DNA from: Isurus oxyrinchus
Lineage: Eukaryota
Direction of reading: 5' to 3'
Length of the DNA: 64,000 nucleotides
Assembly (NCBI GenBank): GCA_026770705.1
Contig: JANJGN010000016.1
Coordinates: 112,158,001 to 112,222,000, forward strand
Position 1 is the first letter of the stretch. Each line of letters starts with the position of its first letter. The notes below the pieces were generated by a model. The model was given only the letters and a program-made list of their open reading frames with translations, was not told the DNA's origin and ran no database searches. The translations under genes were made by a program, and so were the position numbers. Below, in pieces: positions 5,701-52,500 of this stretch.

Positions 5701-6834
5701 TCACGCCGACGAGTTAATGTTTCCTGAGGACATCAGGGTCTCGGGGGTGCCGCACTCGTCCTTGTGCTGATGGGACGAGTTGTCGGACTTGCTGCGGCTG
5801 AACTCGTGGGTGGCCACCAGCGGCGGCTTGTGCTGCCGGAGCCGGTGGGCCGCCGCCCGGCGGCACAGGCAGCAGAGCAGGCGGAAGAAGGCCCGCCTCA
5901 TCTCCCGGCTGGTCAGCGTGTAGATGATGGGGTTCATGGCCGAGTTGAGGACGGCCAGGGCCAGGAACCACTGGGCCCTGTAGAGGACCGGGCAGCCCCG
6001 CACCTGGCAGGCCACGTCCAGCAGCAGCAGGATGAAGAGGGGCGACCAGCAGGCGATGAAGGCGCTCAGCACGATCATCACCGTCTTGAGCAGCGCCAGC
6101 GACTTCTCGCAGCTCTTGCCGGGGCGGACCGAGTACTTGCGGAAGGCGAGGCGCCGGGGGCTGCGGGCCCGGACCAGGGCGTAGATCCGGGCGTAGAGCA
6201 GCACGATGGCCAGCAGGATGAAGCTGAAGGCGGTGGTGCAGAAGAGGATGTAGTGCTTGTGGTAGAGGGGCAGCACGGTGGAGCAGTGCGGGAAGCGCCG
6301 CAGGCAGTTCCAGCCCATGGCCGGCAGGCCGCCCAGCAGCACCGAGAGCAGCCAGCAGCCGCTGATGAGCAGGAAGACGCGGGAGCTGCCGCCCGCGCTG
6401 TGGGGCTTCATCTTCAGCATGGTCAGGTAGCGCTCGATGGCGATGGCCAGCAGGCTGAGCACCGAGGCGGCCAGCGCCACGAACATGCTGCCCTCCCGCA
6501 GGAACCACTGCGCCGGGGTCAGGCTGTAGGTGTTGGAGCCCGACAGCAGGATGTTGGCGGTGTAGGCGGCGCCGGCCAGCAGGTCGGAGAGGGCCAGGTT
6601 GCCGATGAAGTAGTACATGGCCCGGTGGAACTTCTTGGTCTGCCAGATGGCCAGCAGCACCATGAGGTTCTCCAGGACGATGCAGCCGCAGACCACGATG
6701 AAGACGATGGAGGCGACGGTCAGGTCGGTGCCCGGGCCGCCGGCGCCCACCCTCAGCTTGCCGGTGTAGTTGTAGTGCTGCCAGATGACCTCCGAGCCGC
6801 TGTGGGGCACGTGCCGCCCCGCGCCCGCCTCCAT
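5701..6834 (-). CDS. S1PR1: Sphingosine-1-phosphate receptor 1 (EDG1), 377 aa, single coding exon
   Basis: 7TM class A GPCR with HYNYTGKL N-terminus, [45 protein letters not shown] and the S1PR1-type tail [11 protein letters not shown]...[10 protein letters not shown]. Confidence 0.96.
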
Positions 6835-7045
6835 CGCTTTTTGTTTTTGGACTTTCCCGCGCCTTTTTGTTTCCCTTTTCTCTCCTCCTTCCTCCTCCTC
6901 CTCCTCCTCCTCGACCGTTGCCGGTGCCGCCCGGCAGAGGGCGCAGCGATCCCGGGGCGGGGGCGAGGGTTGGCGGCGGCGGGGGGGGTTCCGGGTGTCG
7001 AGTCAGTGAGCAGCCGCGGGGAGAACAGCCAGACAGGGCTTCACT
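6835..7045 (-). other. S1PR1: 5' UTR portion of the S1PR1 coding exon; splice acceptor AG at 7046-7047
   Basis: Minus strand reads gctcttgttctttgcAG|agtgaag; vertebrate S1PR1 has a non-coding first exon. Confidence 0.7.
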
Positions 7046-7200
7046 CTGCAAAGAACAAGAGCCACAACTTCAGCAAACGCCACAAACCAAACCCCTGCCT
7101 TCCAAAAATGAAAGGTACCTTATCAATTCAAATTTAATTGCCCCTTCAAGATCTTTAAAAGACTAAACTGACGCATTTTCTTCTCCTTTTGGAAATGAAT

Positions 7201-7403
7201 TAAAAATAAATAATAAGTAATTCATTTATGTAGACATAACTAAAAATAAATAATAAATAATTCATTTATGTCTACATAACTAAAAATAAATAATAATAAT
7301 TCATTTGTCTACATAACTAAAAATAAATAATAATAAATAAATAATTCATTTATGTCTACATAAATGAATTATTTATTATTATTTATTTTTAGTTATGTCT
7401 ACA
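7201..7403. repeat. AT-rich ~40-bp tandem repeat (about 4 copies) ending in a fold-back palindrome
   Basis: Unit taaaaataaataataaataattcatttatgtctacataac at 7201, 7241, 7281 and 7318, followed by its inverted copy; centre at 7356-7357. Confidence 0.9.
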
Positions 7404-8289
7404 GCTGAAAAAAATTACTTAATTGGCTGTGGTCGTGAAGGATGCTTTAAAAATATACGTCCCTCTACTTTTGACTAAATTGATTTAACGTTCAAAACAA
7501 CAAAAAATTAAGAGATTCCCCAAAACGGAACGTGAAATCTAATTTTGCTTAAGTTTCAAACTTGTAGAAATTAAACTGAAACTGAATGAAAGTCGAGAAT
7601 AAAACAACACGTTGCAACTTTGGTTAACAGTTTTAAACGTTTTGTCAGTGGAATGTTACCTTTATTTGTTGAAAACGCAACCAACAGCTTAGAGGAGCGA
7701 AACCGTGAGAACAGGATACTCTCTCTTCGATTGGAAACAATGGGAAGCGGCGGACGCTTCACAATACTGTACAGTTTGTGAAAAGGAACGCACTTCTGTC
7801 CCAGACTGATGTCTGTCGCCAACCCAGCAATATCAAAATAAACTAAATTGTGAGACTGGGTGGCAATAAATAGAAGATGCACACAGCTGATAAAAGTGCA
7901 AAACAGGAAAAAGGCTGACGCAAAGGATCCAGGCCAGGAGTAGCCAGACAACAGAAGTTCACACTCAACAGTTAGAACCGCCCCACCACATACTTAACAC
8001 AAAAAAAGTGTCTGCAATTTCTGATTTACTTTTTTTTCGCACAAGGGACTGTCAAATTGCTGTCCTGAATTTCAGATTTTGCATTTAAAGTTCTAATAAA
8101 TGAACACCTTGAACCCGACAGCAGCTCAGACTCAGGACATTACATAATTCAGGAATAAGTGACATCTATAAAAGGTTTATTTTTTAAAAAAAAAAAGTTG
8201 TAATTTTAAGTATTAGATATACAACATTTATCCCATAGAAGGCATTGATTTTCCATCAGTTTGAATAAGACAGCGAGCTGAAATGTATT

Positions 8290-9650
8290 TGGATTCCTTA
8301 CCCAGTGCAGGCTATCGGATGTTGCTGTGCAGTTTCACACGTGCTGCCAGGCTAAGCTCTTAGTTGTCACTGAGACACCGAAGAATCGAACGGGCTTTTT
8401 CACCGCTAGTTCACAGAGGCGGCCCCTTTTTCCTATTTGCTTCAGCGGTCTGCACTAAGCCAGCGAGAGGTGGATTCACTTGGCAGCGACCGCGTTTTGT
8501 ACTGCAAATCACCGAGAATAGCGGGACACACAAAAGTTATTTCTAGCACATACTTGAAGCGCATTCAATTCATTCCGCTTTCTCCATCAAGCGAATGAAC
8601 ATAAAGTGAATTGAAACACAGGGTAGATTTCCAGGACATCCAGACATTGCAAGCACTTTATAAACACAGACATGCCACAGACAGGTCTTTTCAAACCCTG
8701 TACTCTTGAATTTTCAGGAGTTAATAATCTTAGACACGGGGCTGTTTTCTGTACTGCCAGTTGTATGTTATTTATGTTTTTAAAAAAGAACCTTATGCAA
8801 ATTGGCTGCCACTCCCTTACAAACCAAACTGCATAGGTTTTGAGTGCGGTGGAAATGCTTTGCACGCAGCCTCGCATATTATCGTTGCATGGGCACAAAA
8901 CGGCAAGTCCATGTCTGAAACCTTGAGGACTGCCTCGTGTATTTGCAATTGATATAAAAGACAAGGGGGGTGGGGGGAAACCCTCCTGATTACACCACTG
9001 AATGCCACAATCAGGGGCGCTATTGAAAGGCGGTGATTCAGTCTCCCGAGAACCCCGTGTCATTAGCTGTTGGCTACAATTCCGACCAGCCGATTTGCAG
9101 TTACAAGTGTTGAGTGAAATGCGCTGAGGGCGGGGGTGAGGGAGTGGAACGAGGACGAATTACCTCAAACTGTAATGGTGAGCCTGATCCTCACTCACTC
9201 ACTGCCCAGAGCAGCTTGTTTTTCAGTGTAACTTGGATGTCAGGGAACTGCGCCTTTGCCCCCTTCATAATGGTCTGGACAGTCCGCTGTTGTGCAGGAA
9301 GTGGCTGCCGGAATCATTTGTGGTGAATGTAAGGCCAAGTGGGAGGGGTGCGAGGGGAGGGGAGGGGAGGGGAGGGGAGGGGGACGGGGGAGGGGTGTGA
9401 GTGGAGAGATGGTGGGGGAGGGGTGTGAGGGGGAGCGGGAGAGTTGGGGAGGGGGAGATTCCGGTAACCAGCATGTAAGGACGGGTGGTTAATAGTGCTG
9501 GGATCCCGCAGGCAGCACCAGCTGGCTGTTTCAGCTCCCCTGGCGCTCCTCAGCTCAATTCCCGGCCTCTCCATTAAAAAAAGGACTAACTCACGTTATA
9601 AGGGGGAAGAGCTAATTAAAGCCGTTTGGTGCTTGTTTTAAAGGCCAACC
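8290..9650. promoter_or_regulatory. Probable S1PR1 promoter and non-coding exon region, possibly bidirectional
   Basis: TE-free and CpG-enriched; minus-strand donor-like sites GG|GTAAGG (8296-8301) and GAG|GTAATT (9158-9163); kB-like GGGGAAACCC at 8974-8983; GC box near 9128; G-rich tract with GGGGTGTG (KLF-type) at 9340-9457. Confidence 0.55.
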
Positions 9651-9816
9651 ATGGGAAAGTGGTGCACACTCGCCTGCCATTGGAGACACCTGGAGAGCAG
9701 AATATTTAACCCAAGGTCAGAGCTGGCGCCCAGCAGGCTCAGGAACAGAATATTCTCAAGGATCAGGAAAGCAGCCAGTGGAGTGGATTGGAAGGAGAAC
9801 TTTGCAGGCCTACAGC

Positions 9817-10959
9817 ATGGGTGCAGCAGCCATTGCTGGGTTTCTCCTTGCAGAGGAGGAGGAGGAAGAGGAGCAGCAGCAGCAGCAACAGAGGCAGACA
9901 GTCCAGGAACGCCGAGGGCACAGGAGGATAACCACACGCCGAACCAACTACCCCAGGCACAGGGTGTTTCGGAACAGAGTCAGTTACTTAGGCTTGACGG
10001 AAGAGCAGTGCCTGAAGAGGCTCCGGCTCAGCAGGGAGGCTGTGACTGAGGTCTGTCGCTTGGTCCAAGGCGACCTACATGGGGAATCGATCATTCGCAC
10101 CGCGCTGCCAGTGGCAGTGAAGGTCACTGCTGCCCTTAACTTCTATGCCACAGGGACTTTCCAAGCACCCACAGCAAACATCACTGGGATCAGCCAGTTT
10201 GCCGTGTACCGTTCCATTAAGGAGGTGACTGATGCACTGGTTCGACATGCACCCACCTACCTAAACTTCAGGAGTGATGAAGAGCAGCAGCGACAACGGT
10301 ACTTTTTCGCCATTGCTGGCTTCCCCAAGGTGCAGGGCATCATTGATTGTATGCAAGTAGCCATTTGTGCACCTAATAACAATCCTATGGCCTACCTGAA
10401 TGCAGAAGGCTATTACTCCCTCAATGTCCAAATTATATGTGATCATCGCCAGAAAATAATGAATGTCAATGCATGCTTCCCAGGAGGCATGCATGATTTT
10501 TACATTCTGAAGCAATCTGAGGTTCCCTTGATCTTTGAAGGGGAGGGAAAGCTAAATGGATGGCTCCTTGGAGATCTCGGCTATGTGCTGCAACCATGGC
10601 TGATGACACCACTGCATAACCCTTTCACCGCAGCAGAGAACAGATACAATGTTGTACACGCACAAACCAGAGTAATCATAAAACAGACATTTGGACTGCT
10701 GAAGAAACGCTTCAGGTGTTTGGATCGATCAGGGGGAGCCTTGCGATACGCCCCAGAAAAAGTCAGCAAAATTGTAACGGTATGCTGCATGCTACACAAT
10801 ATTGCCATGGACAGTGGCCTTTCCCTGGATTTAGATGAGCTTCAACCCATTGAAGATGAGGAGGATCATGGTCCACAGCAGCCACCAGCACTGGATCAGC
10901 CACTACAGGGAGCAAGACAGATGCGTGAGGAAATCATCACTCAGTTCTTCAGTAGTTGA
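9817..10959 (+). CDS. Intact PIF/Harbinger transposase-derived (HARBI1-like) protein, 380 aa from the first ATG; catalytic E replaced by K
   Basis: GFPKVQGIIDC, YSLNVQIICD, FPGGMHD, WLLGDLGY, FGLLKKRFRCLDRSGGALRYAPEKV and CCMLHN motifs; agcATGG at 9817 (the ORF-track start at 9778 is GTG). Confidence 0.88.
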   Translation: MGAAAIAGFLLAEEEEEEEQQQQQQRQTVQERRGHRRITTRRTNYPRHRVFRNRVSYLGLTEEQCLKRLRLSREAVTEVCRLVQGDLHGESIIRTALPVAVKVTAALNFYATGTFQAPTANITGISQFAVYRSIKEVTDALVRHAPTYLNFRSDEEQQRQRYFFAIAGFPKVQGIIDCMQVAICAPNNNPMAYLNAEGYYSLNVQIICDHRQKIMNVNACFPGGMHDFYILKQSEVPLIFEGEGKLNGWLLGDLGYVLQPWLMTPLHNPFTAAENRYNVVHAQTRVIIKQTFGLLKKRFRCLDRSGGALRYAPEKVSKIVTVCCMLHNIAMDSGLSLDLDELQPIEDEEDHGPQQPPALDQPLQGARQMREEIITQFFSS

Positions 10960-11078
10960 GGACTAATGCTGTTCTTCGGGCAGATTTATAATCGGACTTG
11001 GCTCTTGTTCTACTTTTGCATTTTTGATGTACAACAGTTTTTGATATCTTTGCTACTTTTGTCACTTCTGTTCTGCAC

Positions 11079-11084
11079 AATAAA
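11079..11084 (+). terminator. Putative polyA signal (AATAAA) of the HARBI1-like ORF
   Basis: AATAAA 120 nt after the stop codon, preceded by a U-rich tract. Confidence 0.5.
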
Positions 11085-12319
11085 ACAATGGAACTATCAT
11101 AAAAGTGTGCACTTTATTAAATAAATGTGTTTTTATTGTGAGTTAGTGGACTTACCCCTCCCTGACCTATGAATCTTAGTATGCTGCCTTTCCAAAGGTC
11201 TGCACCTCTACACACTCCCTGGATAGGGAAAATAACAATAAAGGATGGCTGAGCCCAAAAATGACCGTAACTGCTCTTGAGAAAGCAATGGTAAGCTGCC
11301 TTCTTGAACCGCCACAGTCCATGTGGTCCAGCTACACCCATTTTGCTAATAGGGAAGGAGTTCCAGGATGTTGATATAGCAACAGTGAAAGAACAGTATA
11401 TGGTTCTAAGTCGGGATGGTCTATGACTTGGAAAACTTGGAGGTTGTAGTGTTCCCAAGCATGTGTTGTCCTAGTTTTTCCAGGTGGTAGAGGTCATGGG
11501 TTTGGAAGGTGCTGTCGAAGGAGGCCTGGCAAGTTCCTGCAGTACATCTTGTGGAAGGTATACACTGCTGCCAATGTGCGCCAGTGGTGGAGAGTGAATG
11601 TTTAAGGTGGTGGATGGGGTGCCAATCAAGCTTTGTTCTGGATGGTGTTGAGCTTCTTCAGTGTTTCTGGAGCTGCACTCATGCAGGCAAGTGGAAGTAT
11701 TTCATCACACTCCTGACTTGTACCTTGTAGCTGGTGGACAGGCTTTGGGAAGTCAGGGGCTGAGGTACTACCACAGAATTCCCAGCCTCTGACCAGTTCT
11801 TGTAGCCACAGTATTTATATGGCTGGTCCAGTTAAGTTTCTGGTCAATAATGGTAATGCCATTGAATGTCAAGGAGAGATGGTTAGATTCTCTCATTGCA
11901 GATGATCAATATCTGGTACTTGTGTGGCACGGATGTTACTTGCTCCTTATCAACCTAAGTCTGAGTTACCAAGTCTTGCTTCTTGTGGGTACAGACTGCT
12001 TCATTATTTGAGGAGTTGCAAATGGTACTGAACATTGTGCAATCATCAGTGAACATCCTTCTGACCTTTTGATGGAGGGAATGTCATTGATGAAGCAGCT
12101 GAAGATGATATAGCCAAAGGCACTAGCCTGAGGAATTCCTGCGGCAATATCCTGGTGATTGACCTCCAAAAACCACAATCATCTTCCTTTGTGCTAGGTA
12201 TGGCTCCAATCACTGAAGAGATTGATTCTCAATTTTGATAAGGCTCTTTGATGCCACACTTGGTCAAATTCTGCCTTGTTATTAATGGCAATCATTCTCA
12301 CCTCCCTACTGGAATTCAA

Positions 12320-13185
12320 CAACTACTTATACTTCTATAGCACTTTTAACATAATGAAACGTCCATTCATAGGAATATTATAAAACAAAGTATGACACTC
12401 AGCTGCATAAGGAGATTTTAGGTCAGGTGGCCAAAAGCTTGGTTAAAGCAGTAAGTTTTAAGAAGTGTTCTAAATGAGGTAAAGGGAGCAAATTCCAGAG
12501 GTTGAGGCCTAGGCAACTTAAGGTACAGCCACCCATGGTGGAGCAATTATAATTGGGAATGCGTGAGAGGCAAGAATTAAATGAGGGCAGATACCTCGGA
12601 GGGTATGGGGTTGGGGAAGGTTACAGAGATAGGAGAAAGGCCATGAAGAGATTTGAAAACAAGAATGATAATTTGAAAAATAAGACGTTGCTTGACCTGG
12701 AGCCAGTGCAGTTTACCAAGGATAGGGGTGATAGGGGGACAGGACATGCTGCAAGTTAAGACATGGGCAGCAGAGCTTTGGATGACCTCAAGTTTGCAAA
12801 AGATAGAATGTGGGAGACCAGCCTGGAGTTTATTGGAATTCGATTCTAGAGGTAATGAAGGCACGAGTGAAGGTTTCAGAGCGAAGAGAGGGGTGAAGTT
12901 GAGTGTTGTTATGAAGGTGGAAATAGCGCATCCTAAAGATGGCAATTGAGGTCAGAAGCTGGTCTCAGGATCAAGTGTGACATCAAGGCTGGGAACAGAC
13001 TGGCTTAACTTCAGACAGTTGCCAGGGAGAAGGATGGAGTCAGTTGTTAGGGAATGGAGTTCGGCGCAGAGAGCAAAAGCAATGGTTTCAGAATTCCCAG
13101 TGTTTAATTGGAGGAAACTTTTGCTCATCCAGTTCTGGAAGTCAGATAAACAGTTTGATATTTAGCAACAGTGGAGGAGTCAGTT
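12320..13185 (-). mobile_element. L2-like LINE 3' fragment nested in the LINE above
   Basis: ITPILGKLHWLQVKQRLIFQIIILVFKSLHGLSP, the typical L2 ORF2 C-terminus. Confidence 0.8.
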
Positions 13186-13789
13186 AGCTCATTTGTTCAT
13201 GTTTGGACAAAGGCTGCAATGAGGTCAGGATCCAAGTGGTCCTGGTGGAACCCAAACTGAACACCGATGAGCTGGTTATTGATGACTAAGTGTCAGTTGA
13301 TACACTTTTTTGACACTTTCCATCACTTTTTGGATGTTTGATAGTAGACTGATAGGCCAGTTATTGGCCAGATTAGATTTATCCTGCTTTTTGTGGACTG
13401 GACATTATGGGCAATTTTACATTTTGTTGGGTACATGCCAGTGATATTGCTGTACTGGAGCAGCTTGTCTAGAGAGACGGTAAGTTCTGGAACACAAGTT
13501 TTCATCACCCTAGCCAAATGTTGTCAGGATCTCGTGCCTTAAGTCAATTCTTGATATCAGGTGGATTGAATAGAATTGGTTGAAGGCTAGCATATGTGAA
13601 GCTGGGGACCTCAGGCGAAGGTCAAAATGGATCATCCACTGACCACTTTGGGCTGAAGACGGTTACAGATTCTTTAGCCTTGTCTTTTGTGCTGATGTGC
13701 TGGGCTCTGCCACTGGTGAAGACGGAGATATTGTGAAGCTTCGTTCGCCATTAGTTGTTTAATTGTCCACTAATATTCGCGACCAGATT

Positions 13790-15232
13790 TTAAAAAAATT
13801 CATTTATGGAATGTGGGTGTCGCTGGCAATCCCTAATTTCCCTTGAGAAGGTGGTGGTGAGCTGCCTTTTTGAAATGCTGCAGTCCATGTGGTGTAGGTA
13901 CACCCACAGTGCTGTTAGGGAGCCATTTCCAGGATTTTTATCCAGTGGCAGTGAAGGAACGGCGATATATTTCCAAGCCAGGATGGTGAGTGACTTGAAG
14001 GGAAACCTCCAGGTGATGTTGTTTCCATGTGTCTGCTGCCCATGTCTTTCTTGATGGTAGCGATCATGGGTTTGGAATGTTCTGTCTAGGGAGCCTTGGT
14101 GAATTCCTGCAATGCATCTTGAAGATGGTACACACTGCTGCCACTGTGCATCGGTGGTGGAGGGAGTGAATGTGGATGTGGTGCCAATCAAGCGGCCTGC
14201 TTTGTCCTGGATGGTGTCAAGCTTTGAGTGTTGAGGCAAGTGGAGAGTATTCCATCACACTCCTGATTTGTGCCTTGTGGGCAGGCTTTGGGGAGTCAGG
14301 AGGTGAGTTACCACAGGATTCCTAGCCTCCGACCTGTTCATGTAGCCAGTGTATTTATATGGCTAGTTTAGTTCAGTTTCTGGACAATAATAACATCCAG
14401 GATATTGATAGTGGGGGATTTAGCAATGGTAATGCCATTGAATGTCAAACAGCGATGTTAGATTCTCTCTTGTTGGAGATGGCTATTGCCTGGCACTTGT
14501 GTGGCGTGGATGTTACTTACCAATTGTCAGTCCAAGCCTGGATATTGACCAGGTCTTGCTGCATTTGGACATGGACTGATTCAGTACCTGAGGAGTTGTG
14601 AATGGTGCTGAACATTGTGCAATCATCAGCGCACATTCCCACTTCTGATCTTATGATGGAAGGAAGATCATTGATGAAGCAGCTGAAGATGGTTGGGTCT
14701 AGGACACTACCTTGAGGAATTCCTGCAGTGATGTCCTGGAGCTGAGATGACTGACCTCCAACAACCACAACCATCTTCCTTTGTGCTGTGTATGACTCCA
14801 ACCAGCAGAGAGTTTTCCCCTGATTCCCACTGACTCCAGTTTTGCTAGGGCTCCTTGTTGCCATACTCGGTCAAATGCTGCCTTGATGTCATGGGCAGTC
14901 ACTCTCACCTCACTTCAGGAGCTCAGCTCTTTTGTCCATGTTTAACCAAGACTGTAATGAGGTCAGGAGCTGAGTGGCCCTGGTGGAACCCAAAGACTGC
15001 CAGTGAACAGGTTATTGCTAAGTAAGTGTCCCTTGATAGCACTGTTGATGACCCCTTCCATTACTTTACTGATGATGGAGAGCAGACTGATGAGGCAGTA
15101 ATTGGCTAGGTTGGATTTGTCCTGCTTTTTATATACAAGATGTACCTGGGCAATTTTTTCACATTTCTGAATAGATGCCAGTGTTAAAGTTGTACTGGAG
15201 CAGCTTGGCTAGGGGTGGAGCACAATTTTTCA
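13790..15232 (-). mobile_element. Second copy of the CR1/L2-group LINE (3' 1.4 kb)
   Basis: DIKAAFDRVW, GIPQGSVLDPTIFSCFINDLP and MCADDCT RT motifs. Confidence 0.8.
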
Positions 15233-16354
15233 AGTGACTCGCAGCAAACTCTCTTTAGGGTTAAATTAGAAATAAAGTTTATACACATTCACACCCAGAG
15301 AATGGTCAAAACCTCATACACACATATAAGCACATAATAAGAAGATAGGAAAGAGGAGTTTTTGCAACTATGAATAACTTAAAGAAAAAGCACCACAGAT
15401 GTGGATATCAGTTCATGTGATTGCCCGAGTGCGGAAAGTCAGAATCCAGTGAGGGTTCCTTCATGGAGGAACTACAGTTCAGCTGGCTGAAGTAGGGTTT
15501 TTGCAGAATTCCTTTAAAATTGATGGTGGCGTAGTGAGACGAGGTTGTTAGTAGAGAGAATTGATCTGCTCGGCAGGCGACAGCAGGAATCCTCCAGAGA
15601 AACAGGCTCCAAGGAGGCTCAGACTTGATGCAGGTTCGTGGTCAGCCTAGAGTTCTGCTTTGATGTTTGCAGGCTGGAGTTTAAACAGCAGACTGAGCTG
15701 TGAGTCTGGAAAGGTAATGTTAAACCTTTACAAAGGCCAGATGCTTAGGTCATATGACGTTGCCCATTAATGAGTCAGTTGCAGGCTAACAAGCAATTTC
15801 TATGCCTCTAGTCAAAATCCATCATTCACCTTAGGAGATAATAGCATAATAAGCCATAAAACCATAGGATGTAGGAACAGAAGTAGGCCATTCAGCCCAT
15901 TGAGTCTGTTCCGCCATTCAGTGAGATCATGGTTGATCTGATAACCCTCAACTCCACTTTCCTGACTTTTCCCCATAACCCTTGATGCCATTACTGATAA
16001 AAAAAAATCTATCTATAAACGGTGGCTTTTAGCACCTCTGCAGGGTATAACAAGTTCCAATGGCTTCCCCTTTGTTTTAGGACCAGGCTGTGGAGATGAA
16101 TTGTCCGTTGGTCCCTGGTTTCATTGTTTGTAAAGTGTTCTCACAGTGAGAGGTGTGAGATTCCACAAGGATGCGGTTTGAGCTTTTGTCCTGTCATTGT
16201 TATTGAAAATTTCCAGAAACTGTAGCCAACTTGCGAATCATGTGATATGTAGTAGCCATCTTTTGGTTCAGCAAAGTCCACTTCTTAACTAAGCAAAAAG
16301 ATAAGGTTTGATTTAAACTGTTTATGATCTCTTCATTCTGTTAGAGGCATGACA
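15233..16354. mobile_element. Unclassified ~1.1-kb insertion, possibly a solo LTR, containing a CR1 tail at ~15855-16010
   Basis: Non-LINE sequence between LINE segments; ends ...GCATGACA (TGTCATG on the minus strand); no TSD confirmed. Confidence 0.35.
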
Positions 16355-16584
16355 GAGTGCTGCTTCTGCTGTTTAGCATGCACAGAGCTTGTGTTGTAGC
16401 TTCACCTGGTTGGAACCTCAGTTTTAGGTAAGCCAGATGCTGCTCCTGGCATGCTCTTCTGCACTCTTCATTAAATCCGGGTTGGTCCCCTGGCTTAGTG
16501 GTAAGGGAAGAATGAAAGATATCCTGGACAATGTGGTTACAGATTTGCAGGTGGGTGGGGGGTGGAGGGGGGTGGTGGTGGTGG

Positions 16585-16790
16585 TGGTGGTCAGTTCAGT
16601 TGGCTAGTGTGATGCAGAATGAAGCAACAGCATGGATTCAATCCCCATGCCAGCTGTGGTAGCTCATGGAGGCCTGCCTCCTCACCTTGCCCCCTGCTTG
16701 CAGAATGGTGCCTCTCAAGCTATACATAACCAATTGTCTCTTCTAATGGGGAGAGATACATATAGTCCTTTATGGGTTATGGCTAATTAC
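16585..16790 (+). mobile_element. tRNA-derived SINE
   Basis: A-box-like 'tcagttcagttgg' and B-box-like 'ggattcaatccc'; interrupts LINE sequence. Confidence 0.5.
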
Positions 16791-18031
16791 AAGGTTACAG
16801 ATTGTAGTTAAATAAATTCTGCTGTTGTTGATGGCCCACAGCATCACATGGTTGCCCATTTTTGAGCTGCTAGATCTGTTCTGAATCTATCCTATTTAGT
16901 ATGGTGGTAATACCACACAGCACTGCCCTCAGTGTAAAAATGGGACTTCATCTACACAAGGACTGTATTGGTCACTCCTACCAATACTGTCATCGACAGT
17001 GTATCTGTGACAGCTACATTGGTGAGGATGAGGTCCAAAAGGTTTTTCATATGAATATACATATGAATTAGGAGCAAATGATTCCCTCACCATTTGCCAC
17101 AGGCCCAGTCTGATAGATGCATCCTTCAGAACTCAACCAGCTCAGTCAGAAGTGGTGCTTCCCAGCCACTCTTGGTGATGGATATTGAAGTCTCCCACCC
17201 AGAGTACATTCTGCACCCTTACTACCCTCAGTGCTTCTTACGAGTGGTGTTCAATATGGAGGAGCACTGATTGATCAACTGAGGGAAGACAGTAGGTGTA
17301 ATCACCAGAAGGTTTCCTTGCCCATGTTTGATCTGATGTTATGAGACTTCATAGGGCCTGGAGTCAATGTTGAGGACTCGCGGCGCCACTTGCCTCTGAT
17401 TGTATACCACAATTCCACCATCTCTGCTGGGTCTTTCCTGCCTGTGAGGCAGACTTATCCAAGGATGGTGATGGGGAGGAGTTTGGAACATTAGCTATAA
17501 GTTTTGATTAGGTGAGTATGACTATGTCAGGCTGTTTCTTGACTCATCTGTGTCCCAGTTTTGGCATGAGTCTGCAGTTAGTGAGGAGAGCTTGTCAAAA
17601 GGGAAGGGTGTGTCTTTGTTGTTTCCTGTGTTTAGGCCAATGTGGGGTGGTTAATTCAGCTTTATTCTTACTAAATTTTTCTGTAGCAGTATGATTCTTA
17701 CTGAGTGGTTTGCTAGGCCATTTTGGAGGGTAGTTAAAAGACAACCACATTGCCTGTGGGTCTGGAGTCACATGTAAGCCAGACTGGGTAAGGACATTAG
17801 TTTTGTGAACTAGATAAGTTTTTACAACAATCTGGTAGTTTCATGATCATTGTAACTGATAGTAGCTTTCTGTTCTAGATTTTTAATTAATTAATTGAAT
17901 TTAAATTTCCCACCTGCCATGGTTTGAATTGAACTCATGTCTCCAGGCCTTTGGCTCAGACCTCTGGATCACTAGTCCACGAACATAACCGCCATCCTGT
18001 CCAGCATAGCCGACCTAAGGACCTAGGCATC

Positions 18032-18392
18032 ATCTATGGCTCAGTGGGTAACATTGTCAGAATTTTGCGTGATCAAGTCTCACACCAAAAACTTGAGCAT
18101 TTAAGCCATGAGGTGCCATTTTCACTTGCCCTTGAAAATGGATGTAAACGATCCCATGCCACTATTTGAACAAGAGCTGTAAGTTCTCCTAGCATATTGA
18201 CCAATATTTATTTTCCAGCCAACATCACAAACAGGTTTTCTGGTCGTTAGTTGTTGTACTTGGGATCTATCTGTGTGCAAAGTGGCTACCATATTTCCTA
18301 TTATAACGGTGACTACACCTGTACTTAATTGACTGCAAAATATTTTGGGATAACGTGTGGCCATGAAAGGCACTATATAAATGTTTTTCTAA
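18032..18392 (+). mobile_element. Deu-domain SINE (SacSINE/AmnSINE-like)
   Basis: tggctcagtggg head, Deu-like core 'ccaatatttat...tgggatctatctgtgtgcaaagtggct', L2-type tail 'cactatataaatg'. Confidence 0.7.
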
Positions 18393-18569
18393 TACTACTT
18401 CCTGTGACGGGCCTTGGTGCATCAACATTTATATCAGGCCTGTGCTTCTGTGTTTATAGAATATTTGCTTGTGCAGCTGAGGGCATAGAGCTGCTCTTGC
18501 TGACATTAAGGCTCTCCAGCTAATGTTGGATTGTGTCACTTCTGGATCACCCAATGAACACCAGGAAGA

Positions 18570-18980
18570 ATAAGAATTTGTATTTACATAGCATCTTTCA
18601 CATCCTCAGGATACCCCAAAGTGCTTCACTGCCAATTAACTACTTTTGATGTGCAGTCACTGTTAGTGGAGATAATATGGCAGTCAATTTATACACAGCA
18701 AGATCCCACAAACAGCAAAGAAATCGGCAGTCAATCTACAATTTGGAATGGTCTTGATTGAAGGATAAATATGCCCAGGACACTGGGAGAATTGACTCTC
18801 CTGCTAATCTTTTAAAAGATCTTATATGTTGAGCTGAAAAGAGAGAAAAGCCTCTGTCTAGCGTTGCTTCCAAAAGACAGATTTATGTGCAAGCAGGTGG
18901 GCTTAAAAGAAGTACCTAAATTCCTCCTTAATGATTGCCTGCGTAATGGACTGGAACTATTAACACTTCTTAGATGTTAT
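18570..18980 (-). mobile_element. Deu-domain SINE, inverted relative to the previous copy
   Basis: 'cagcaagatcccacaaacagcaa' and 'ccaggacactgggagaa' are the reverse complement of the Deu core. Confidence 0.65.
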
Positions 18981-19034
18981 AAAGCCTCCATTTCAGCAGT
19001 GAAAGAATTAACATGCAATGTTCAAGTCATATCA

Positions 19035-19160
19035 AGGTCTGAAAAATGTGTCAGAAGGACTCGAAACGTTAACTCTGTTTCCCTCTCCACAGATGCTGCC
19101 AGACTTGCTGAGCTTCCCAGCATTTTCTGTTTTTATTTCAGATTTCCAGCATCTGCAAGC
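19035..19160 (+). mobile_element. Short Penelope-like terminal fragment with a degenerate hammerhead
   Basis: 'gactcgaaacgttaact...gatgctgccagacttgctgag...gatttccagcatctgca' matches 52686-52785. Confidence 0.7.
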
Positions 19161-19927
19161 CATATCTATGGTTTGTACAACTGTGATCCCCATGACAGAC
19201 TGGCATGCAAACAAATAGTCATCCATTACATCACTTGTGTGGGAGAAAACACCCTTGATCCAGCTGCTAGATTTGCGATGACTTAGCGTCAATTGTCCTA
19301 CTTCAAGGGACAGTTCACTGCTTGATACGATCTGTCGTACCAGTTTAATTTTCAAGCCAGAGCCATTGAGGTGATTGTGCCAGATTTGGGCACCATAATG
19401 TGTCCTGTTATAAAGTATATCTATATTGTTAGCTTCTTCTATCTTAAATTCTGACTAGGTCAAATATGTCAGTTTTTAACGTGGTTTTGTCAGTTGCACT
19501 CTGGAGGTGTTTCTTTTTTCTTTGAATTGATGTGGAAGGGAGTAAAGAAAATTCTACTTTTTGCCCCAGTAGGTTTTGAACGATAGATATCAAAATATTG
19601 CATTGCTTGAAGCTGAGATAGCCAGGACCACACATGGCCACTGATCTCTGGCACCTGGCCCTGAACACTCAGAGAACTCAGCCCAATTTGATTTAATGTT
19701 TATTTACTCATCTGCCCAATTAGAGTTTTGAGTGGCAGAAGGCTGCCTTTAACCTCTTGTTATCAGAACTCCAAGGTCAACTGGAATTAGCAACTTGAGA
19801 TATACGGTTTACAAAGAAAAATCTTGCACACCTTTGCCATGAATAACAATGGTGACTTCCTTTGTAGATTCTGTCAGACAAATGTGAGTTTACATATGTA
19901 GTCATCGCAAATGAATGAAGTTTGATC

Positions 19928-20875
19928 AAAGCAAAATACCGCGGATGCTAGAAATCTGAAACAAAAACTAAAATAGCTGGAAAAACTCAGCAGGTCTGAC
20001 AGCAGCTGCGGAGAGGAACACAGTTGACGTTTCGAGTCTGTATGACTCTTCATCAGAACTAAGGAAATAGAGAAATGAGGTGAAATATAAGCTGGTTGAG
20101 GGGGTGGGACAGGTAGAGCTGGATAGAGGGCCAGTGATAGGTGGAGGCAAAGAAGAGATTGCCGAAGATGTCAGAGACAAAAGGACAAAGGGGTGTTGAC
20201 AGTGGTGATTTTAGCTAAGGAATGTGCTAATGGTGACATTAAGGGTAGCAAGCAGGACAAACAAGTGGCAGATGGCCCTAGTGGGGGTGTGGGGGTGGGG
20301 TGGGGGGAAGGGATAGAAATGGGCTAAAAGATGGAGATGAAACAATAGATGGCAATAAATTTAAAAATAGGTGGGAAAAAAATATATTTTTTAAAATTAT
20401 AAATTATTGGAAAAAGGGGGATCAGAAAGGGGGTGGGGTTTGGAGGAGAGAGTTCATGATCTGAAATTGTTGAACTCAATATTCAGTCCGGAAGGCTGTG
20501 AAGTGCCTAGTCGGAAGATGAGGTGCTGTTCCTCCAGTTTGCGTTGAGCTTCACTGGAACATTGCAGCAGGCCAAGGATGGACATGTGGGCATGAGAGCA
20601 GGGTGGAGTGTTGAAATGGCAAGCGACAGGGAGGTCTGGGTCAAGCTTGCGGACAGACCGAAGGTGTTCCGCAAAGCGGTCACCCAGTCTGCGTTTGGTG
20701 TCTCCAGTGTAGAGGAGACCGCATTGGGAGCAGTGAACGCAGTAGACTAAATTGAGGGAAGTGCAAGTGAAATGCTGCTTCACTTGAAAGGAATGTTTGG
20801 GCCCTTGGACGGTGAGGAGAGGGGAAGTAAAGGGGCAGGTATTGCACCTTCTGCAGTTGCATGGGCAGGTGCCGT
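19928..20875 (-). mobile_element. Penelope-like element 3' end (GIY-YIG endonuclease region and tail)
   Basis: NLVYCVHCSQCGLLYTGDTKRRLGDRFAEH...GLNIEFNNFRS. Confidence 0.9.
20022..20060 (-). ncRNA. Minimal type I hammerhead ribozyme with a canonical core
   Basis: AGTT-CTGATGA-A-GAGTC-ataca-GACTC-GAAAC-GTC-AACT: stem I AGTT/AACT, 5-bp stem II, GUC cleavage triplet. Confidence 0.8.
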
Positions 20876-22350: not shown

Positions 22351-24720
22351 TGTGGGGTTTTACTTCCACTTCAAACAACTTCCATCCCAACTTGGACCCA
22401 CCAATCACCACTCTCCCATCCATTTCACACTCCACAGCACAACATTTCCTTGCCCAACATTCAGCAATAAAAGCCACCAATAAATACCTTCACGAAACAT
22501 TTTTAAGCAAAAACACATATAACAATACAAACAATAAACTTCCCTTAGTGTCTGTTTCGTGATGCCTTTGTTTGGCTTCATGCTCCCATGCAGTGTCACC
22601 TCAGAGGCTGCAGCATGGCTGGCAGAAGACTACTGACTTTCACCGCAGGCGACATCAAATGGCCTTGCAGGACGACCTTGAGCAGCTCTGAGCCAAAAAG
22701 GCCCTACTTTGATCTGCATCACCTTGGTATGGGTAGTAGCAGTCTGGGCTGGCTGGCTGAGAGGCACCAGCAAGGACACTGGCAGTAGTGGGAGAAAGGA
22801 CAGTAGATTTGTGCTCCATGGAGCCGCTGGCATTCCTCGGGATGACATCTCTGCAATCCTAGTAATCTGCAGAAGGACAGATTCCTGGACTGCTATAAGA
22901 GCCTACATGACCTGTCAAGCACTGATATCTGCACCCATGATAGCAACAGTCTGAACCTCTATGGCAGTAGCCAAGGCTCTCATGACATCTGTCTGAGTTT
23001 CCACGACAGCATTTGAGAGGTTGGAAGGCATCTGCCTGTGTTGCAGTGGAAGTTGAGACAGCAGCCATCAGGTGCTCCATCATGGGTCGGCCCAGAAATA
23101 CCTCATGGGGCTGGCCAGCACTTTTGCAATGGAAGGAATGGACTGTGCTGGCTGTGCAGTAAGTTCTGCCATGTTGGAGTCAGACTCCTCCATGGTCCTA
23201 GAACATAATTGAAGGTTACCTGGGAGGCCTGCCAATGCACCATGTGCCTTGGTGTGCTCTGTCATCACTGTTCCCCGATCAAAGTCCTCAGCTGAGTTTG
23301 TAGTGGCAGAATTTGTCTATGATCTTGTGCTCCAGGATGCTGACAAATGAACTACTCTGTCCTCCTGGCCTTGCTTTAGCCCACTCATGCTTGGTGACTC
23401 ACCAAATGCTATTTGTGACTCTATAATACCCTCGAAATACCAGTATCAAAGTGATAGTATCTGAGCTGATGACTGCTAATATCAAGTGATGTTGCCTCCT
23501 CATCACTTTCGTAGGGTATCGTTCTCTTCACCTCTCTCTCTCTCCCTCCCTCCTACATCTGCTGAGGCTGACTAGGTAGCAGTTCTTCTCTATCTGAAAG
23601 CAGAAGGGGAAAGTTGGGGTGAGGGAAGGGGATGGGAAGGAAAGCAGATTTCCTTGGTCACACAAGCTGAAGTTTCCATTTGATGCCACATCTGAGGATG
23701 AGAATGAGGAGGGAGTTGAAAGATGATAAGGTTGTTGTTTACTGTTTACCTGGGCAGCCTCTCCTGCATCAGATGTCATGGGCCATCTTGCCTCCATCCC
23801 CATGATGCAAAGCAACATTTCCTCTAGGGAGCTCAGGTGATGGAGCTGCGGTGTAACCCCCTCCTCCCACCCGGCCTCTACTGCTCCCTGATGTTATGGG
23901 CAACCTTTGCCTGAAGGAGAGAGTGTAGAGTGTCAGTGATTGTGTGGTGCTGTACTTAGGTGATGCGCCTGCCATAGCTGACTAGTTAGAGGTGTGTGGG
24001 GGCAGGGAGATGTGGGTGTGATGTTGGCAGCATTTGTAGATGTGTGTGGGTGAGTTGGAGTTTGTGAATGTTAGGCAAGAGTCCTGAGTGCCAGGGAATG
24101 CAGTTGGGTGAGTAATGGGGTGTGATGCATTGAGCAAAGTGAGAGGTTGTTGATGTGGTGGGCATGAGATGTACTGTGAGGATGCATTCACTCATCTATG
24201 CCACCCATGTGAAGTCAATGTCTTTTTTTGCTGCTTTGCTTCCACATCCATGGTGCAAGACTCTGGGAATTCGTCCTCCGAGCGACAGGGTTCTTGTTTT
24301 TTTGATGACTTCTTTTCCACTGGGGAAACAGTACCTCCTTCCTGGAGTACACTTCGGTGACCAGAGATTTTAGTGTGGTGTCGCTAAAGTGGGGAGCCCT
24401 GTCCTTTGCCAACTGAGGCATCCTTATAATCTTGTGAAATGATTTTTCATCACTTGTGATTTCAGGTGTGCAGTCTCCTGTAATTGACAACGAGCCTTTA
24501 AAAGGAGCAGGCAGTCTGGAGCACATGGTTGCCAAACATTGCTGCTGGGCTCCCCACTCTGTGCAGAGGCTGCAGGCAGCATGGAGAGCGACAAAGCAGC
24601 ATGGGAGCCACTCGGCCCAACGCTACTATCAGTCAAATGAGGTGGGTAGATGAAAATTGATCTGATGTAGGCAGGTCGCAAATCATGTGTCCTGCGCCCA
24701 AAAATCAGGGCAACGCAGTT
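22350..24720 (-). pseudogene. Relic of a Harbinger Myb/SANT-like accessory gene (first exon ~24196-24421)
   Basis: MPQLAKDRAPHFSDTTLKSLVTEVYSRKEVLFP...NSQSLAPWMWKQ resembles Harbinger Myb-like DNA-binding N-termini; low-complexity downstream exons ending in GRPARP. Confidence 0.6.
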
Positions 24721-48703: not shown

Positions 48704-49509
48704 ACAGAATGACAGCATACAAACACAACATGAGGGGCCATCAAATGGAGCAAACAAAGTATTGCAGAATGGCATTACACCAATCTAAAGGGGAGAGAAT
48801 GACAACTCACAAAAATAAGTGGTATAATGTGGCTTTACCCCAATACAGGGGGCAAAAGGTATCAGCACAGAATCATAGGAAGGACAGAGAGAACAAACCA
48901 ATACACTTACACAAAGTGGCTGCACAGTACAGAACGCGGCACGATAATCTCACCAACTGTACAAAGATACAGTGGCACAGAGCAGCAAGCACACCAGTAC
49001 ACTGTGGTGCAGAGTGGCATTTCACTAATATTCAAAGTGAAAACTGACCATAGCGTCATATTCATTCAGGATTAAACTTCACTGATTCCAATCTTAAACT
49101 CCAGATGTGGCTCTGACACAAATTAAATTTGGTATTTCTTTGCAACATATTTTGATACAAAAAATACAAAAGGCCTGATAGAGACCTCAATTCCTGTGGT
49201 GAAACTATTATTTACTTTGCAGCAAACATTAAAGTACTATTCCAGTTATGCCCTGTACTGGGAGGTACACATATTTTCAAAATAAGTCTCTCTCTTATTT
49301 GTACATTTACTTAATCCACTTTCTTCTTTTTCAATGCCACAAGCCACCACAGGCAAAAATAGCAGTGACACGATCAGCTCTCAACTCTCACTGGAGCTGG
49401 TCTGAATCTGTCCCTGGGAAGTGTGGATCCCCAACAACTTTCCATGTGAGATTATGTCTAGCCTCTGGACATGACCTCCTGTGATGGTTTGGCTGAGGAG
49501 ACCAGGCAT

Positions 49510-52500
49510 CCACTTATATTCCTTGAAGAAGTTCTGTTCCTCTCTGCGACAAGATTTCCGTATCTCTCTGTTGCCTTGTTCACCTTCTTTGCTTTCCATT
49601 TCCCTCCTGGTGTTTGACAAGGTGTTTACTAAAACCCGCTTTCACAGCCATATCTCCTTTCTCAGTGACTGTCTCCGTCTCCGACTTACCCCACGTGGAT
49701 TTCAACTGAAATTCCACCCCTCATCTTTCGAACCCACCCAGGATGACCGGTATTTCCGGGACATAAAACGTTTCTCAGACTGCTGTTCCCGTCACATTCT
49801 GAAATCCACACTCAGTGCCATGCGCCGCCATATGAACACACTCGACCTCTCCCTCCAGCAGCACCGCCGTACCCTTTTTCAAAGCTGCGCGTGCCCCCAG
49901 TTTCATTTTATCCTTCGGCTCATCCGACGCCTCAACAAGAAACTTTTTCTCTTTCTCTCAACTGCTAAGGAACGCAAGCTCCAACAACTCATCGACACCA
50001 ACACCCATCTAGGACCCTCCACCCCGGCCTGTCCCTCCGTCCCCACCCCATCTTCCAATCCCAGCCCCAGCCGTGTATTCACTATACCCCCTGATCTTTC
50101 CCTCTCCGATGCTGAACGTTCAGCGCTCAGCAAAGGACTTAGTTTCATACCCTTATGCCCTCACCTCAATGAATTTCGGGCTCGGCATGATACTGAACTC
50201 TTCTTTCGCCGTCTTCGTCTTCGGGCTCACTTCTTTGGGCAGGAGTCCTCTCCCAGTTCAACTGATCCTTTTACCCATCTCCAATATTCTCCCTCCACCT
50301 GGACCCCTCCCTCTGGATTCTTACCTTCTCTTGATCTTTTCATTGAGAACTGTCGGCGCGACATTAGTCGTCTCAATTTCTCTGCTCCTCTCACCCATTC
50401 TAACCTGTCTCTCTCTGAACTTACTGCACTCCATTCTCTCAGGCCCAACCCTGACATTGTCATCAAACCCGCTGACAAGGGTGGTGCTGTTGTTGTCTGG
50501 CGCACTGACCTCTACCTTGCGGAGGCTGAGCGTCAACTCGCAGACACTTCCTCCTACCTCTCCCTGGACCATGACCCCACCACTGAACATCAAGCCATTG
50601 TTTCCAGGACTGTCACTGACCTCATCTCCTCTGGGGATCTCCCTCCCACAGCTTCCAACCTGATAGTCGCCCAACCTCGGACGGCCCGCTTCTATCTCCT
50701 ACCCAAAATCCACAAACAGAACTGCCCCGGTAGACCGATCGTCTCAGCTTGCTCCTGCCCCACAGAACTCATTTCTCGTTATCTTGACTCCCTTCTCTCT
50801 CCCCTTGTCCAGTCCCTTCCCACCTACATCCGTGATTCCTCTGACACCTTACGTCACATCAACAATTTCCAGTTCCGTGGCCCCAACCACTTCCTCTTCA
50901 CCATGGACGTCCAATCCCTCTACACCTCCATCCCCCACCAGGATGGTCTGAGGGCCCTTAGCTTCTTCCTCGAACAGAGGCCCGAACAATCCCCATCCAC
51001 CACTACTCTCCTCCGTCTGGCTTAACTTGTTCTCACGTTGAACAATTTCTCCTTCAACTCCTCTCACTTCCTCCAAATAAAAGGTGTGGCTATGGGTACC
51101 CGCATGGGCCCCAGCTATGCCTGTCTCTTTATGGGGTATGTGGAACATTCCTTGTTGCAGTCCTACTCCGGCCCCCTTTCACAACTTTTTCTCCGGTACA
51201 TCGATGATTACTTCGGTGCCGCTTCATGCTCTCGTCGGGACTTGGAAAAATTTATTAATTTTGCTTCCAGTCTCCACCCCTCCATCATTTTCACGTGGTC
51301 CATCTCTGACACTTCCCTTCCCTTCCTTGACCTCTCTGTCTCAATCTCTGGTGATAGACTGTCCACCAATATCCATTACAAACCCACCGACTCCCACAGC
51401 TACCTCGACTACAGCTCCTCACACCCCGCTTCCTGTAAGGACTCCATCCCATTCTCCCAGTTCCTTCGTCTTCGTCGCATCTGTTCCGATGATGCTACCT
51501 TCAAAAACGGTTCCTCTGACATGTCCTCCTTCTTCCTTAACCGAGGTTTTCCACCCACGGTTGTTGACAGGGCCCTCAACCGTGTCTGGCCCATCTCCCG
51601 CGCATCCGCCCTCATGCCTTCTCCTCCCTCCCAGAAACATGATAGGGTCCCCCTTGTCCTCACTTGTCACCCCACCAGCCTCCGCATTCAAAGGATCATC
51701 CTCCGCCATTTCCGCCAACTCCAGCATGATGCCACTACCAAACACATCTTCCCTTCACCCCCCTTATCGGCATTCCGTAGGGATCGCTCCCTCCGGGACA
51801 CCCTGGTCCACTCCTCCATCACCCCCTACTCCTCAACCCCCTCCTATGGCACCATCCCATGCCCACGCAAAAGATGTAACACCTGCCCCTTCACTTCCTC
51901 TCTCCTCACCGTCCAAGGGCCCAAACACTCCTTTCAAGTGAAGCAGCATTTCACTTGCATTTCCCCCAACTTAGTCTACTGCATTCGTTGCTCCCAATGT
52001 GGTCTCCTCTACATTGGAGAGACCAAACGTAAACTGGGCGACCGCTTTGCAGAACACCTGCGGTCTGTCCGCAAGAATGACCCAAACCTCCCTGTCGCTT
52101 GCCATTTTAACACTCCACCCTGCTCTCTTGCCCACATGTCTGTCCTTGGCTTGCTGCATTGTTCCAGTGAAGCCCAACGCAAACTGGAGGAACAACACCT
52201 CATCTTCCGACTAGGCACCTTACAGCCTTCCGGTCTGAATATTGAATTCAACAACTTTAGGTCGTGAGCTCCCTCCCCCATCCCCACCCCCTTTCTGTTT
52301 CCCCCTTTTTTTTTCCCCTTTTTTTCCCCCAATAAATTATATAGATTTTTCTTTTCCCACCTATTTCCATTATTTTTAAATATTTTAAAATCTTTTATGA
52401 TCCCTCCACCCCCACTAGAGCTGTACCTTGAGTGCCCTACCATCCATTCTTAATTAGCGCATTCGTTTAGATAATATCACCAACTTTAACTTTAACACCT

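Follow-up and report, generated by a model that had tools for sequence, protein, structure and literature searches.

HARBI1 keeps its catalytic triad and adjoins ATG13. In the literature consulted it is named as the vertebrate Harbinger-transposase gene, with its function left open, and its partner, NAIF1, imports it into the nucleus (PMC9392472). In Arabidopsis, the ALP1/ALP2 (PRC2) and HDP1/HDP2 (IDM1 complex) systems each include a domesticated Harbinger nuclease whose triad is broken; ALP1 and HDP1, lacking it, work as members of chromatin complexes (PMC4671723, PMC7282668). Insect DPLG/APLG and other PIF domesticates arose repeatedly, are lineage-restricted and in some cases consist of the transposase only; insect co-domestications often arise from one insertion (PMC9710019). 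In teleosts, the DDE_Tnp_4 gene nxhl / zgc:113227 has been treated as a "HARBI1 homologue" (PMC8558974). As for cartilaginous fishes, PMC9179366 reports no Harbinger elements in the elephant shark and suggests others for study.

Here we describe gene A, an open reading frame in a 64,000-nucleotide stretch of Isurus oxyrinchus DNA (the window, in which positions are given unless a contig is named). Like HARBI1 with its partner NAIF1, gene A is single-copy, derives from a Harbinger transposase, encodes a DDE_Tnp_4 domain and has no element ends that we saw (PMC9392472, PMC5753468). It differs in its apparently separate origin inside the cartilaginous-fish Harbinger radiation, in being found only in galeomorph sharks so far and adjoining S1PR1, and in having an intronless coding region and no third triad residue. 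Gene A no longer has the catalytic Glu, a loss that plant ALP1 and HDP1 also underwent, and like them it retains the N-terminal half, by which those proteins bind their partners (PMC4671723, PMC7282668). The plant genes are of independent origin, however; gene A lost the Glu only, and its partner is only proposed. Its lineage restriction recalls the insect domesticates, although no linked Myb/MADF gene occurs at its locus, and it is a fish DDE_Tnp_4 gene like nxhl but without a close bony-fish match. With autonomous PIF/Harbinger transposons it shares transposase sequence, fold and D-D-35 spacing (PMC9179366), whereas it has no TIRs that we saw, no Myb ORF, no sister copies and no catalytic Glu. 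In the literature searched (mostly non-subscription journals, without supplements) we found no description of gene A or of a shark-specific Harbinger domestication; its proteins are already in RefSeq, under an automatic name only.

A Harbinger-Derived Reading Frame Beside S1PR1

The preliminary description of this DNA had proposed an intact, domesticated Harbinger transposase gene, and its account of the reading frame proved accurate. One uninterrupted frame of 380 codons occupies window positions 9817-10959 (+). The triad codons GAT 10345, GAT 10573 and AAA 10681 correspond to D177, D253 and K289, with a D253-to-K289 spacing of 35 residues, and the motifs IDCMQ and IIKQTFG, the E7Q6 tract (aa 13-25) and an AATAAA at 11079 were all found. 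The features of the locus are as follows.

5701..6834, minus strand: S1PR1 coding exon, the divergent neighbour used as synteny anchor and conservation yardstick (domain and protein matches)
9817..10959, plus strand: gene A, intronless ORF of 380 aa, very probably a domesticated Harbinger transposase (ORF list, homology)
9853..9891, plus strand: E7Q6 tract, aa 13-25, lying within an N-terminal helix as modeled (sequence, model)
9949..10251, plus strand: aa 45-145, a helical N-terminal region that includes a predicted helix-turn-helix at aa 72-144; the most conserved part (model, alignment)
10342..10800, plus strand: DDE_Tnp_4 / RNase H-fold domain, aa 176-328 (Pfam, model)
10345..10347, plus strand: D177, first catalytic Asp, kept (alignment)
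10573..10575, plus strand: D253, second catalytic Asp, kept (alignment)
10681..10683, plus strand: K289 at the catalytic Glu position, Lys in 8/8 species (alignment)

S1PR1 and gene A lie head to head, the S1PR1 start codon being about 3 kb from gene A. The E7Q6 tract varies in length between orthologues and is not distinctive, since such tracts also occur in related shark proteins (P0009, P0017). Pfam DDE_Tnp_4 matched aa 176-328 at E 3.5e-34 and 118 bits, against a curated cut-off of 24.8. In an AlphaFold2 model (mean pLDDT 84), aa 72-144 were predicted to form a helix-turn-helix-like block and aa 154-337 an RNase H fold; structurally the model came closest to piggyBac transposase (Z 10.1, rmsd 4.6, 234 aligned), followed by Tn5 transposase (Z 9.2, rmsd 5.7, 245 aligned). 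Foldseek gave nothing at E ≤ 0.001, a PDB sequence search gave six matches, all at chance level, and a search of the ESM Atlas confirmed DDE_Tnp_4 clusters and nothing more. As judged from the domain score and the modeled fold, the gene A protein is derived from a PIF/Harbinger transposase.

Single-copy status, named in the preliminary description as a sign of domestication, was observed. In the 5-Gb assembly the gene A protein matched itself, the next best match being 55% identical in amino acids; only 1 of the 108 listed matches exceeded 55%, the other 107 lying at or below it, and such counts are lower bounds. When gene A DNA with its flanks was used, 1 of 40 matches was full-length and the next was 68% identical over 540 nt. 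The multiple near-identical, dispersed copies that are a hallmark of an active Harbinger element are thus absent. Most of the other genomic matches belong to an abundant Harbinger family, only about 50% identical to gene A, whose copies are 92.9% identical in nucleotides (median of 325 pairs) and carry stops in 23 of the 26 best-scoring cases; this family is much younger than gene A, yet mostly broken by stops. Two hallmarks of an autonomous Harbinger element are also missing at the locus: the triad reads D177, D253 and K289 in place of an intact DDE, and there is no Myb-like second ORF within an element, no intact one being present in the window or in the 20 kb preceding it. No convincing pair of TIRs surrounds gene A among the 25 longest of 288 inverted-repeat pairs (7000-20000); old ends would have decayed. 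The earlier statement that every other transposable element in the window is broken was checked in part and held for the best other candidate, a nearly intact Penelope-like retroelement at 49484-52267 (+) with 927 codons and a single internal stop.

Read contigs and sequence signals point to the following possible elements of a gene A transcript and its promoter.

7450..9340, no strand assigned: CpG-rich, unique sequence separating S1PR1 from gene A, a candidate for a head-to-head promoter region used by both (sequence)
9465..9816, plus strand: unspliced 5' leader under RNA-like contigs, one of which reaches 18 nt past 9465 (read contigs)
9651..10049, plus strand: out-of-frame upstream ORF of 132 aa in strong Kozak context, overlapping the gene A start (sequence)
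11079..11084, plus strand: AATAAA polyadenylation signal; RNA-like contigs stop at 11087, 11093 and 11094 (sequence, read contigs)

RNA-like contigs from three runs of three studies each spanned gene A as one contig, from the leader to 3-10 nt past AATAAA. Over 11105-11268 they gave nothing, and a DNA-like run carried on to 11323. The three runs are only guessed to be RNA, none of the runs listed for this sequence being recorded as such, and the contig ends are a weak hint that a polyadenylated, unspliced transcript exists. In two species, several RefSeq records exist for one gene A protein. The upstream ORF at 9651 is a possible brake on translation of gene A; donor-like sites at 9329 and 9475 could remove its ATG, and no such joint was among those shown. 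On the minus strand, donor-like splice sites at 8301 and 9163, together with an S1PR1 splice acceptor near 7048, suggest alternative S1PR1 first exons within about 1 kb of the gene A leader. Gene A may therefore share a promoter region with S1PR1, possibly a bidirectional one. An AT-rich tandem repeat with an inverted last part, capable of forming a long hairpin, lies at 7190-7410 in a presumed S1PR1 intron.

Orthologues and Selection in Galeomorph Sharks

Protein searches with gene A recovered two clusters whose local identity was 90-91%, below which nothing appeared until 56%. Orthologues were recovered from seven other sharks of three orders; these are 91-99% identical, open and full length, and all have the Lys and IDCMQ. 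The Carcharodon protein is 99% identical (99.5% in pairwise protein identity, S1PR1 there being 99.2%), and those of Scyliorhinus torazame, S. canicula, Rhincodon, Hemiscyllium, Chiloscyllium punctatum and C. plagiosum are 91-93% identical. The frame is open over 375-380 codons in the eight species, all length differences being in-frame, and in the tree the orthologues form one clade (SH 100) with lamniform, carcharhiniform and orectolobiform groups.

The preliminary description had expected a domesticated gene to recur next to S1PR1 in other sharks, and consecutive record identifiers bear this out in six of the seven species, synteny being read here from identifiers and contigs of equal size rather than from DNA. 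Consecutive gene A/S1PR1 records are found in Carcharodon (XP_041064058/059), S. canicula (XP_038650666-7/668-9), C. plagiosum (XP_043555593-5/591-2), Hemiscyllium (XP_060686224/225-6), C. punctatum (GCC33086/33087) and Rhincodon (g46890/g46889); the RefSeq numbers of Rhincodon are not consecutive. In S. torazame the identifiers are not consecutive and the contig sizes are equal. Contigs of equal size were seen in 6/7 species, and every species passes at least one of the two tests; in C. punctatum the sizes differ, probably since its S1PR1 record also comes from a second assembly. Gene A is thus a single copy at the orthologous site in distant species, as expected of a domesticated transposase.

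A recent dead-on-arrival copy was the alternative raised at the outset. The E-to-K change requires one G>A substitution and is common, Lys occupying the catalytic Glu position in 13 of 123 rows outside gene A, and two other intact loci in this genome read ATC AAG there, the expected CpG-decay product of ATC GAG. This alternative is refuted by the orthologues, present next to S1PR1 in three orders whose split dates to the Early-Middle Jurassic (bioRxiv 10.64898/2026.02.13.705779), and by the absence of sister copies in the genome, and we give it practically no credence.

Protein searches found no orthologue in rays, chimaera, Heterodontus or squalomorph sharks, an absence that carries little weight because Stegostoma, Mustelus and Cetorhinus also gave none, though S1PR1 of all three is present in the collection; in these three the missing orthologue may reflect an annotation gap or loss. 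Shorter homologues amounted to 17 matches among 280 candidates, none above 53%, and 593 pattern matches to shark DNA in metagenomes included none that was confirmed.

Purifying selection, also anticipated in the preliminary description, is indicated at two time scales. Between orders, gene A proteins are 88-93% identical, 306 of 380 columns (81%) are invariant across the eight species, and conservation exceeds that of S1PR1 in 22 of 28 pairwise species comparisons, which are not independent. Compared with a close relative (organism B), the coding DNA shows five synonymous and two non-synonymous differences, a dN/dS of 0.12-0.16 (P 0.009-0.023) that rests on seven changes between two close relatives, with 54 repeat bases skipped, and may include polymorphism. 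The synonymous rate (1.6-2.0%) resembles that of the 3' flank (4/229 nt), and replacements are depleted. Gene A is thus an open frame under purifying selection, as would be expected of a domesticated transposase. These rates also bear on the idea that the DNA is conserved as regulatory sequence of S1PR1 and the protein is incidental. The location, in divergent orientation some 3 kb away from the start codon of S1PR1 and beside a CpG-rich unique interval, would suit such a role, and the upstream ATG could suppress translation of gene A. However, synonymous sites change at the flank rate while replacements are depleted, and the frame has stayed open over 375-380 codons in eight species with only in-frame length differences; we consider this explanation very unlikely.

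Single copy, open orthologues, synteny with S1PR1, purifying selection and Lys in 8/8 species together uphold the main proposal of the preliminary description, and we put the probability of domestication, with gene A a host gene of Harbinger-transposase descent, at about 0.96. It represents an independent domestication, at least Jurassic in age, that is more conserved than its receptor neighbor.

The Lysine, the N-Terminal Half and a Possible Myb-Like Partner

At the position aligned to K289, 26 of 29 other genomic loci have E, two have K and one has G, so K289 replaces the catalytic Glu; since Lys is common to all eight species, it predates the split of the orders. The preliminary description had counted a conserved K in favor of domestication. 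Lys is indeed conserved, but this is weak evidence, as 81% of columns are invariant anyway, and as proof of selection it was rejected on the same count (306/380). Gene A reads ATA AAA at this site, by which a CpG-decay route is neither shown nor excluded. The E-to-K change is probably an easy way to lose the site and not a designed feature. Considering that one triad mutation lowers Ping excision about 150-fold (PMC2836001), loss of nuclease activity is likely, and the triad suggests that the gene A protein is likely nuclease-dead. Both Asp residues and a nearby HD motif are invariant, and the protein may still bind metal or DNA, or even have residual activity.

The protein could alternatively remain a nuclease that uses the two Asp and another ligand (e.g., D227), or be a non-cutting DNA-end binder. 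D177, D227 and D253 are invariant in gene A, unlike in paralogues B, D and E (see below), where D177 or D227 is gone from some or all species, and the RNase H fold is predicted intact. Yet the residue at the Glu position is basic, the window protein has no acidic residue one helical turn away, the DDE domain is the less conserved half, and the invariance of most gene A columns blunts the argument from Asp conservation. A retained enzyme of this kind seems to us distinctly improbable.

Within gene A, 93 of 101 columns are invariant in the N-terminal region, while the DDE domain has 125 of 157 such columns (Fisher P 0.008). In transposon-like relatives the order is reversed (N-terminal vs. DDE, 55.7 vs. 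72.5% and 45.7 vs. 56.3%), these comparison sets being labeled by the analyst and far more diverged than the gene A orthologues. The same shift of constraint is found in paralogues C and D and in two bony-vertebrate clades, and not in paralogues B (P 0.44) or E. In Harbinger elements and domesticates, the nuclease uses its N-terminus to bind its Myb partner at the C-terminus (PMC7282668, PMC4671723). Because of the N-terminal shift and the precedents of ALP1/HDP1 and HARBI1/NAIF1, we favor a nuclease-dead adaptor bound to a Myb-like protein over a repressor or a retained enzyme, at odds slightly better than even. On this model, the gene, established next to S1PR1 across three shark orders and under purifying selection, encodes a protein that, with Lys at the catalytic Glu position, would no longer cut; its N-terminal half would bind a Myb/SANT-type partner and so reach chromatin; and the protein would work in a chromatin or transcription complex, as ALP1/ALP2 or HDP1/HDP2 do. 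Against it stand the missing constraint shift in B and E and the lack of a linked cognate Myb gene.

Gene A might instead have been domesticated as a transposon repressor that sequesters the Myb-like proteins of elements or poisons transpososomes. The Harbinger load of the genome is large (147,900 transposase and 17,227 Myb-domain first-look candidates), the whole fold and both Asp are kept, and if new families were repeatedly countered in this way, several dead domesticates of independent origin would be expected. On the other hand, gene A shares only about 50% identity with the abundant family, its sequence has barely altered since the divergence of the orders, unlike that of a participant in an arms race, and ALP1 and ALP2 did not bind Ping proteins (PMC7282668). 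Repression therefore appears unlikely, though it is the strongest competitor of the adaptor model.

If the gene A protein is a Myb-bound adaptor, candidate partners exist among intact, low-copy Myb-like genes of this genome, one of which is conserved in whale shark and rays.

C22:24114913-24115137, minus strand: Myb/SANT gene of Harbinger ORF2 type, open frame (genome search)
C17:19970170-19970394, plus strand: Myb/SANT gene of Harbinger ORF2 type, open frame (genome search)
C15:15615922-15616152, minus strand: Myb/SANT gene of Harbinger ORF2 type, open frame (genome search)
C4:4574884-4575102, plus strand: Myb/SANT gene of Harbinger ORF2 type, open frame (genome search)

The genes on contigs C22 and C17 are paralogous and intact, combine a Myb domain with a coiled coil in open exons and gave only two matches; the C15 gene has relatives in whale shark and four rays. 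All four genes are candidate partners of the gene A protein. A NAIF1-like query gave three weak matches in the genome, which are not readable as absence. Within the window, a Myb-like relic at about 24,210-24,400, 13 kb off, was rejected as cognate partner, being broken and having 44 other matches at 68-80%. The stretch at 22600-24700 (-), in which it lies, holds a Myb-like ORF2 in decay, from an old Harbinger family of many copies that are 68-80% identical.

The Wider Family of Harbinger-Transposase Genes

Family trees were built from 106 rows, and from 36 rows chosen among them, canonical HARBI1 not being included. Gene A, which sits on a long stem, fell within a clade of chondrichthyan sequences (100/100), as sister to gene B with moderate support (94/88). 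Three further intact loci are of interest in this genome.

C1:176200323-176201414: gene B (L002), intact divergent Harbinger transposase ORF, in sharks and sawfish (genome search, tree)
C21:69056509-69057630: gene C (L003), intact divergent Harbinger transposase ORF with K or R at the catalytic Glu (genome search, tree)
C31:20845396-20846322: possible gene F (L013), intact divergent ORF with K, also in S. torazame (genome search, tree)

Genes B, C and F closely match sequences of other elasmobranchs and are likely further domestications. Two elasmobranch clades, D (sharks and rays, with a heavily altered triad) and E (rays), are also conserved with damaged triads, and all of their members are automatically named HARBI1 (P0013, P0015, P0022, P0023, P0025; P0017, P0134, P0020). 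Orthology within clades B-F is drawn from sequence and tree only. A single origin of genes A and C was rejected (AU P 0.007), as was one of A-E together (AU P 8e-7), in tests whose groups had been chosen with an earlier tree in view, which makes the P values optimistic. Since A-E are not one clade, the trees point to several separate Harbinger domestications in elasmobranchs, with at least four conserved genes besides A. Gene A thus does not stand alone, several conserved Harbinger-transposase genes occurring in elasmobranchs.

The trees also bear on whether gene A corresponds to canonical HARBI1, either as its shark orthologue or as a duplicate of it. RefSeq names every gene A orthologue "putative nuclease HARBI1", and the trees lack the canonical gene. 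That label, however, is also given to plainly transposon-derived models. HARBI1 is described as conserved in all jawed vertebrates (PMC5753468, PMC9392472), yet the 120 matches to gene A that were listed, of 363, included no mammal, and the best matches with non-cartilaginous names were about 50% identical. Moreover, gene A nests among transposon-like copies in a 27-row chondrichthyan clade (100/100). Orthology with HARBI1 is accordingly given hardly any weight; from its tree position, the lack of close bony-vertebrate matches and the conservation of HARBI1 in jawed vertebrates, gene A appears distinct. In this genome, a search for the ATG13 family and a short motif pattern for canonical HARBI1 matched nothing, by which its presence is not judged. 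Under the label "putative nuclease HARBI1", several genuine genes that are not orthologous to one another are lumped with the remains of transposons.

Gene A and its paralogues offer replicated natural experiments on why Harbinger transposases that likely no longer cut are kept, and they are accessible to testing in catshark or bamboo shark. More speculatively, elasmobranchs may have repeatedly and independently domesticated Harbinger transposases (gene A and at least four others, whose triads are damaged in some or all species) next to several lineage-specific Myb/SANT coiled-coil genes, as combinatorial pairs of pseudo-nuclease and Myb adaptor that target chromatin regulators, an idea we hold only tentatively. 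If true, vertebrates would have an equivalent of what ALP and HDP are in plants, hidden by the automatic name HARBI1. Two bony-vertebrate clades also look domesticated, having broken triads and a better conserved N-terminal region: one from lungfish, caecilian, turtle and birds (P0041, P0053, P0058, P0059, P0065, P0071) and one from coelacanth, caecilians and turtle (P0047, P0048, P0051, P0052).
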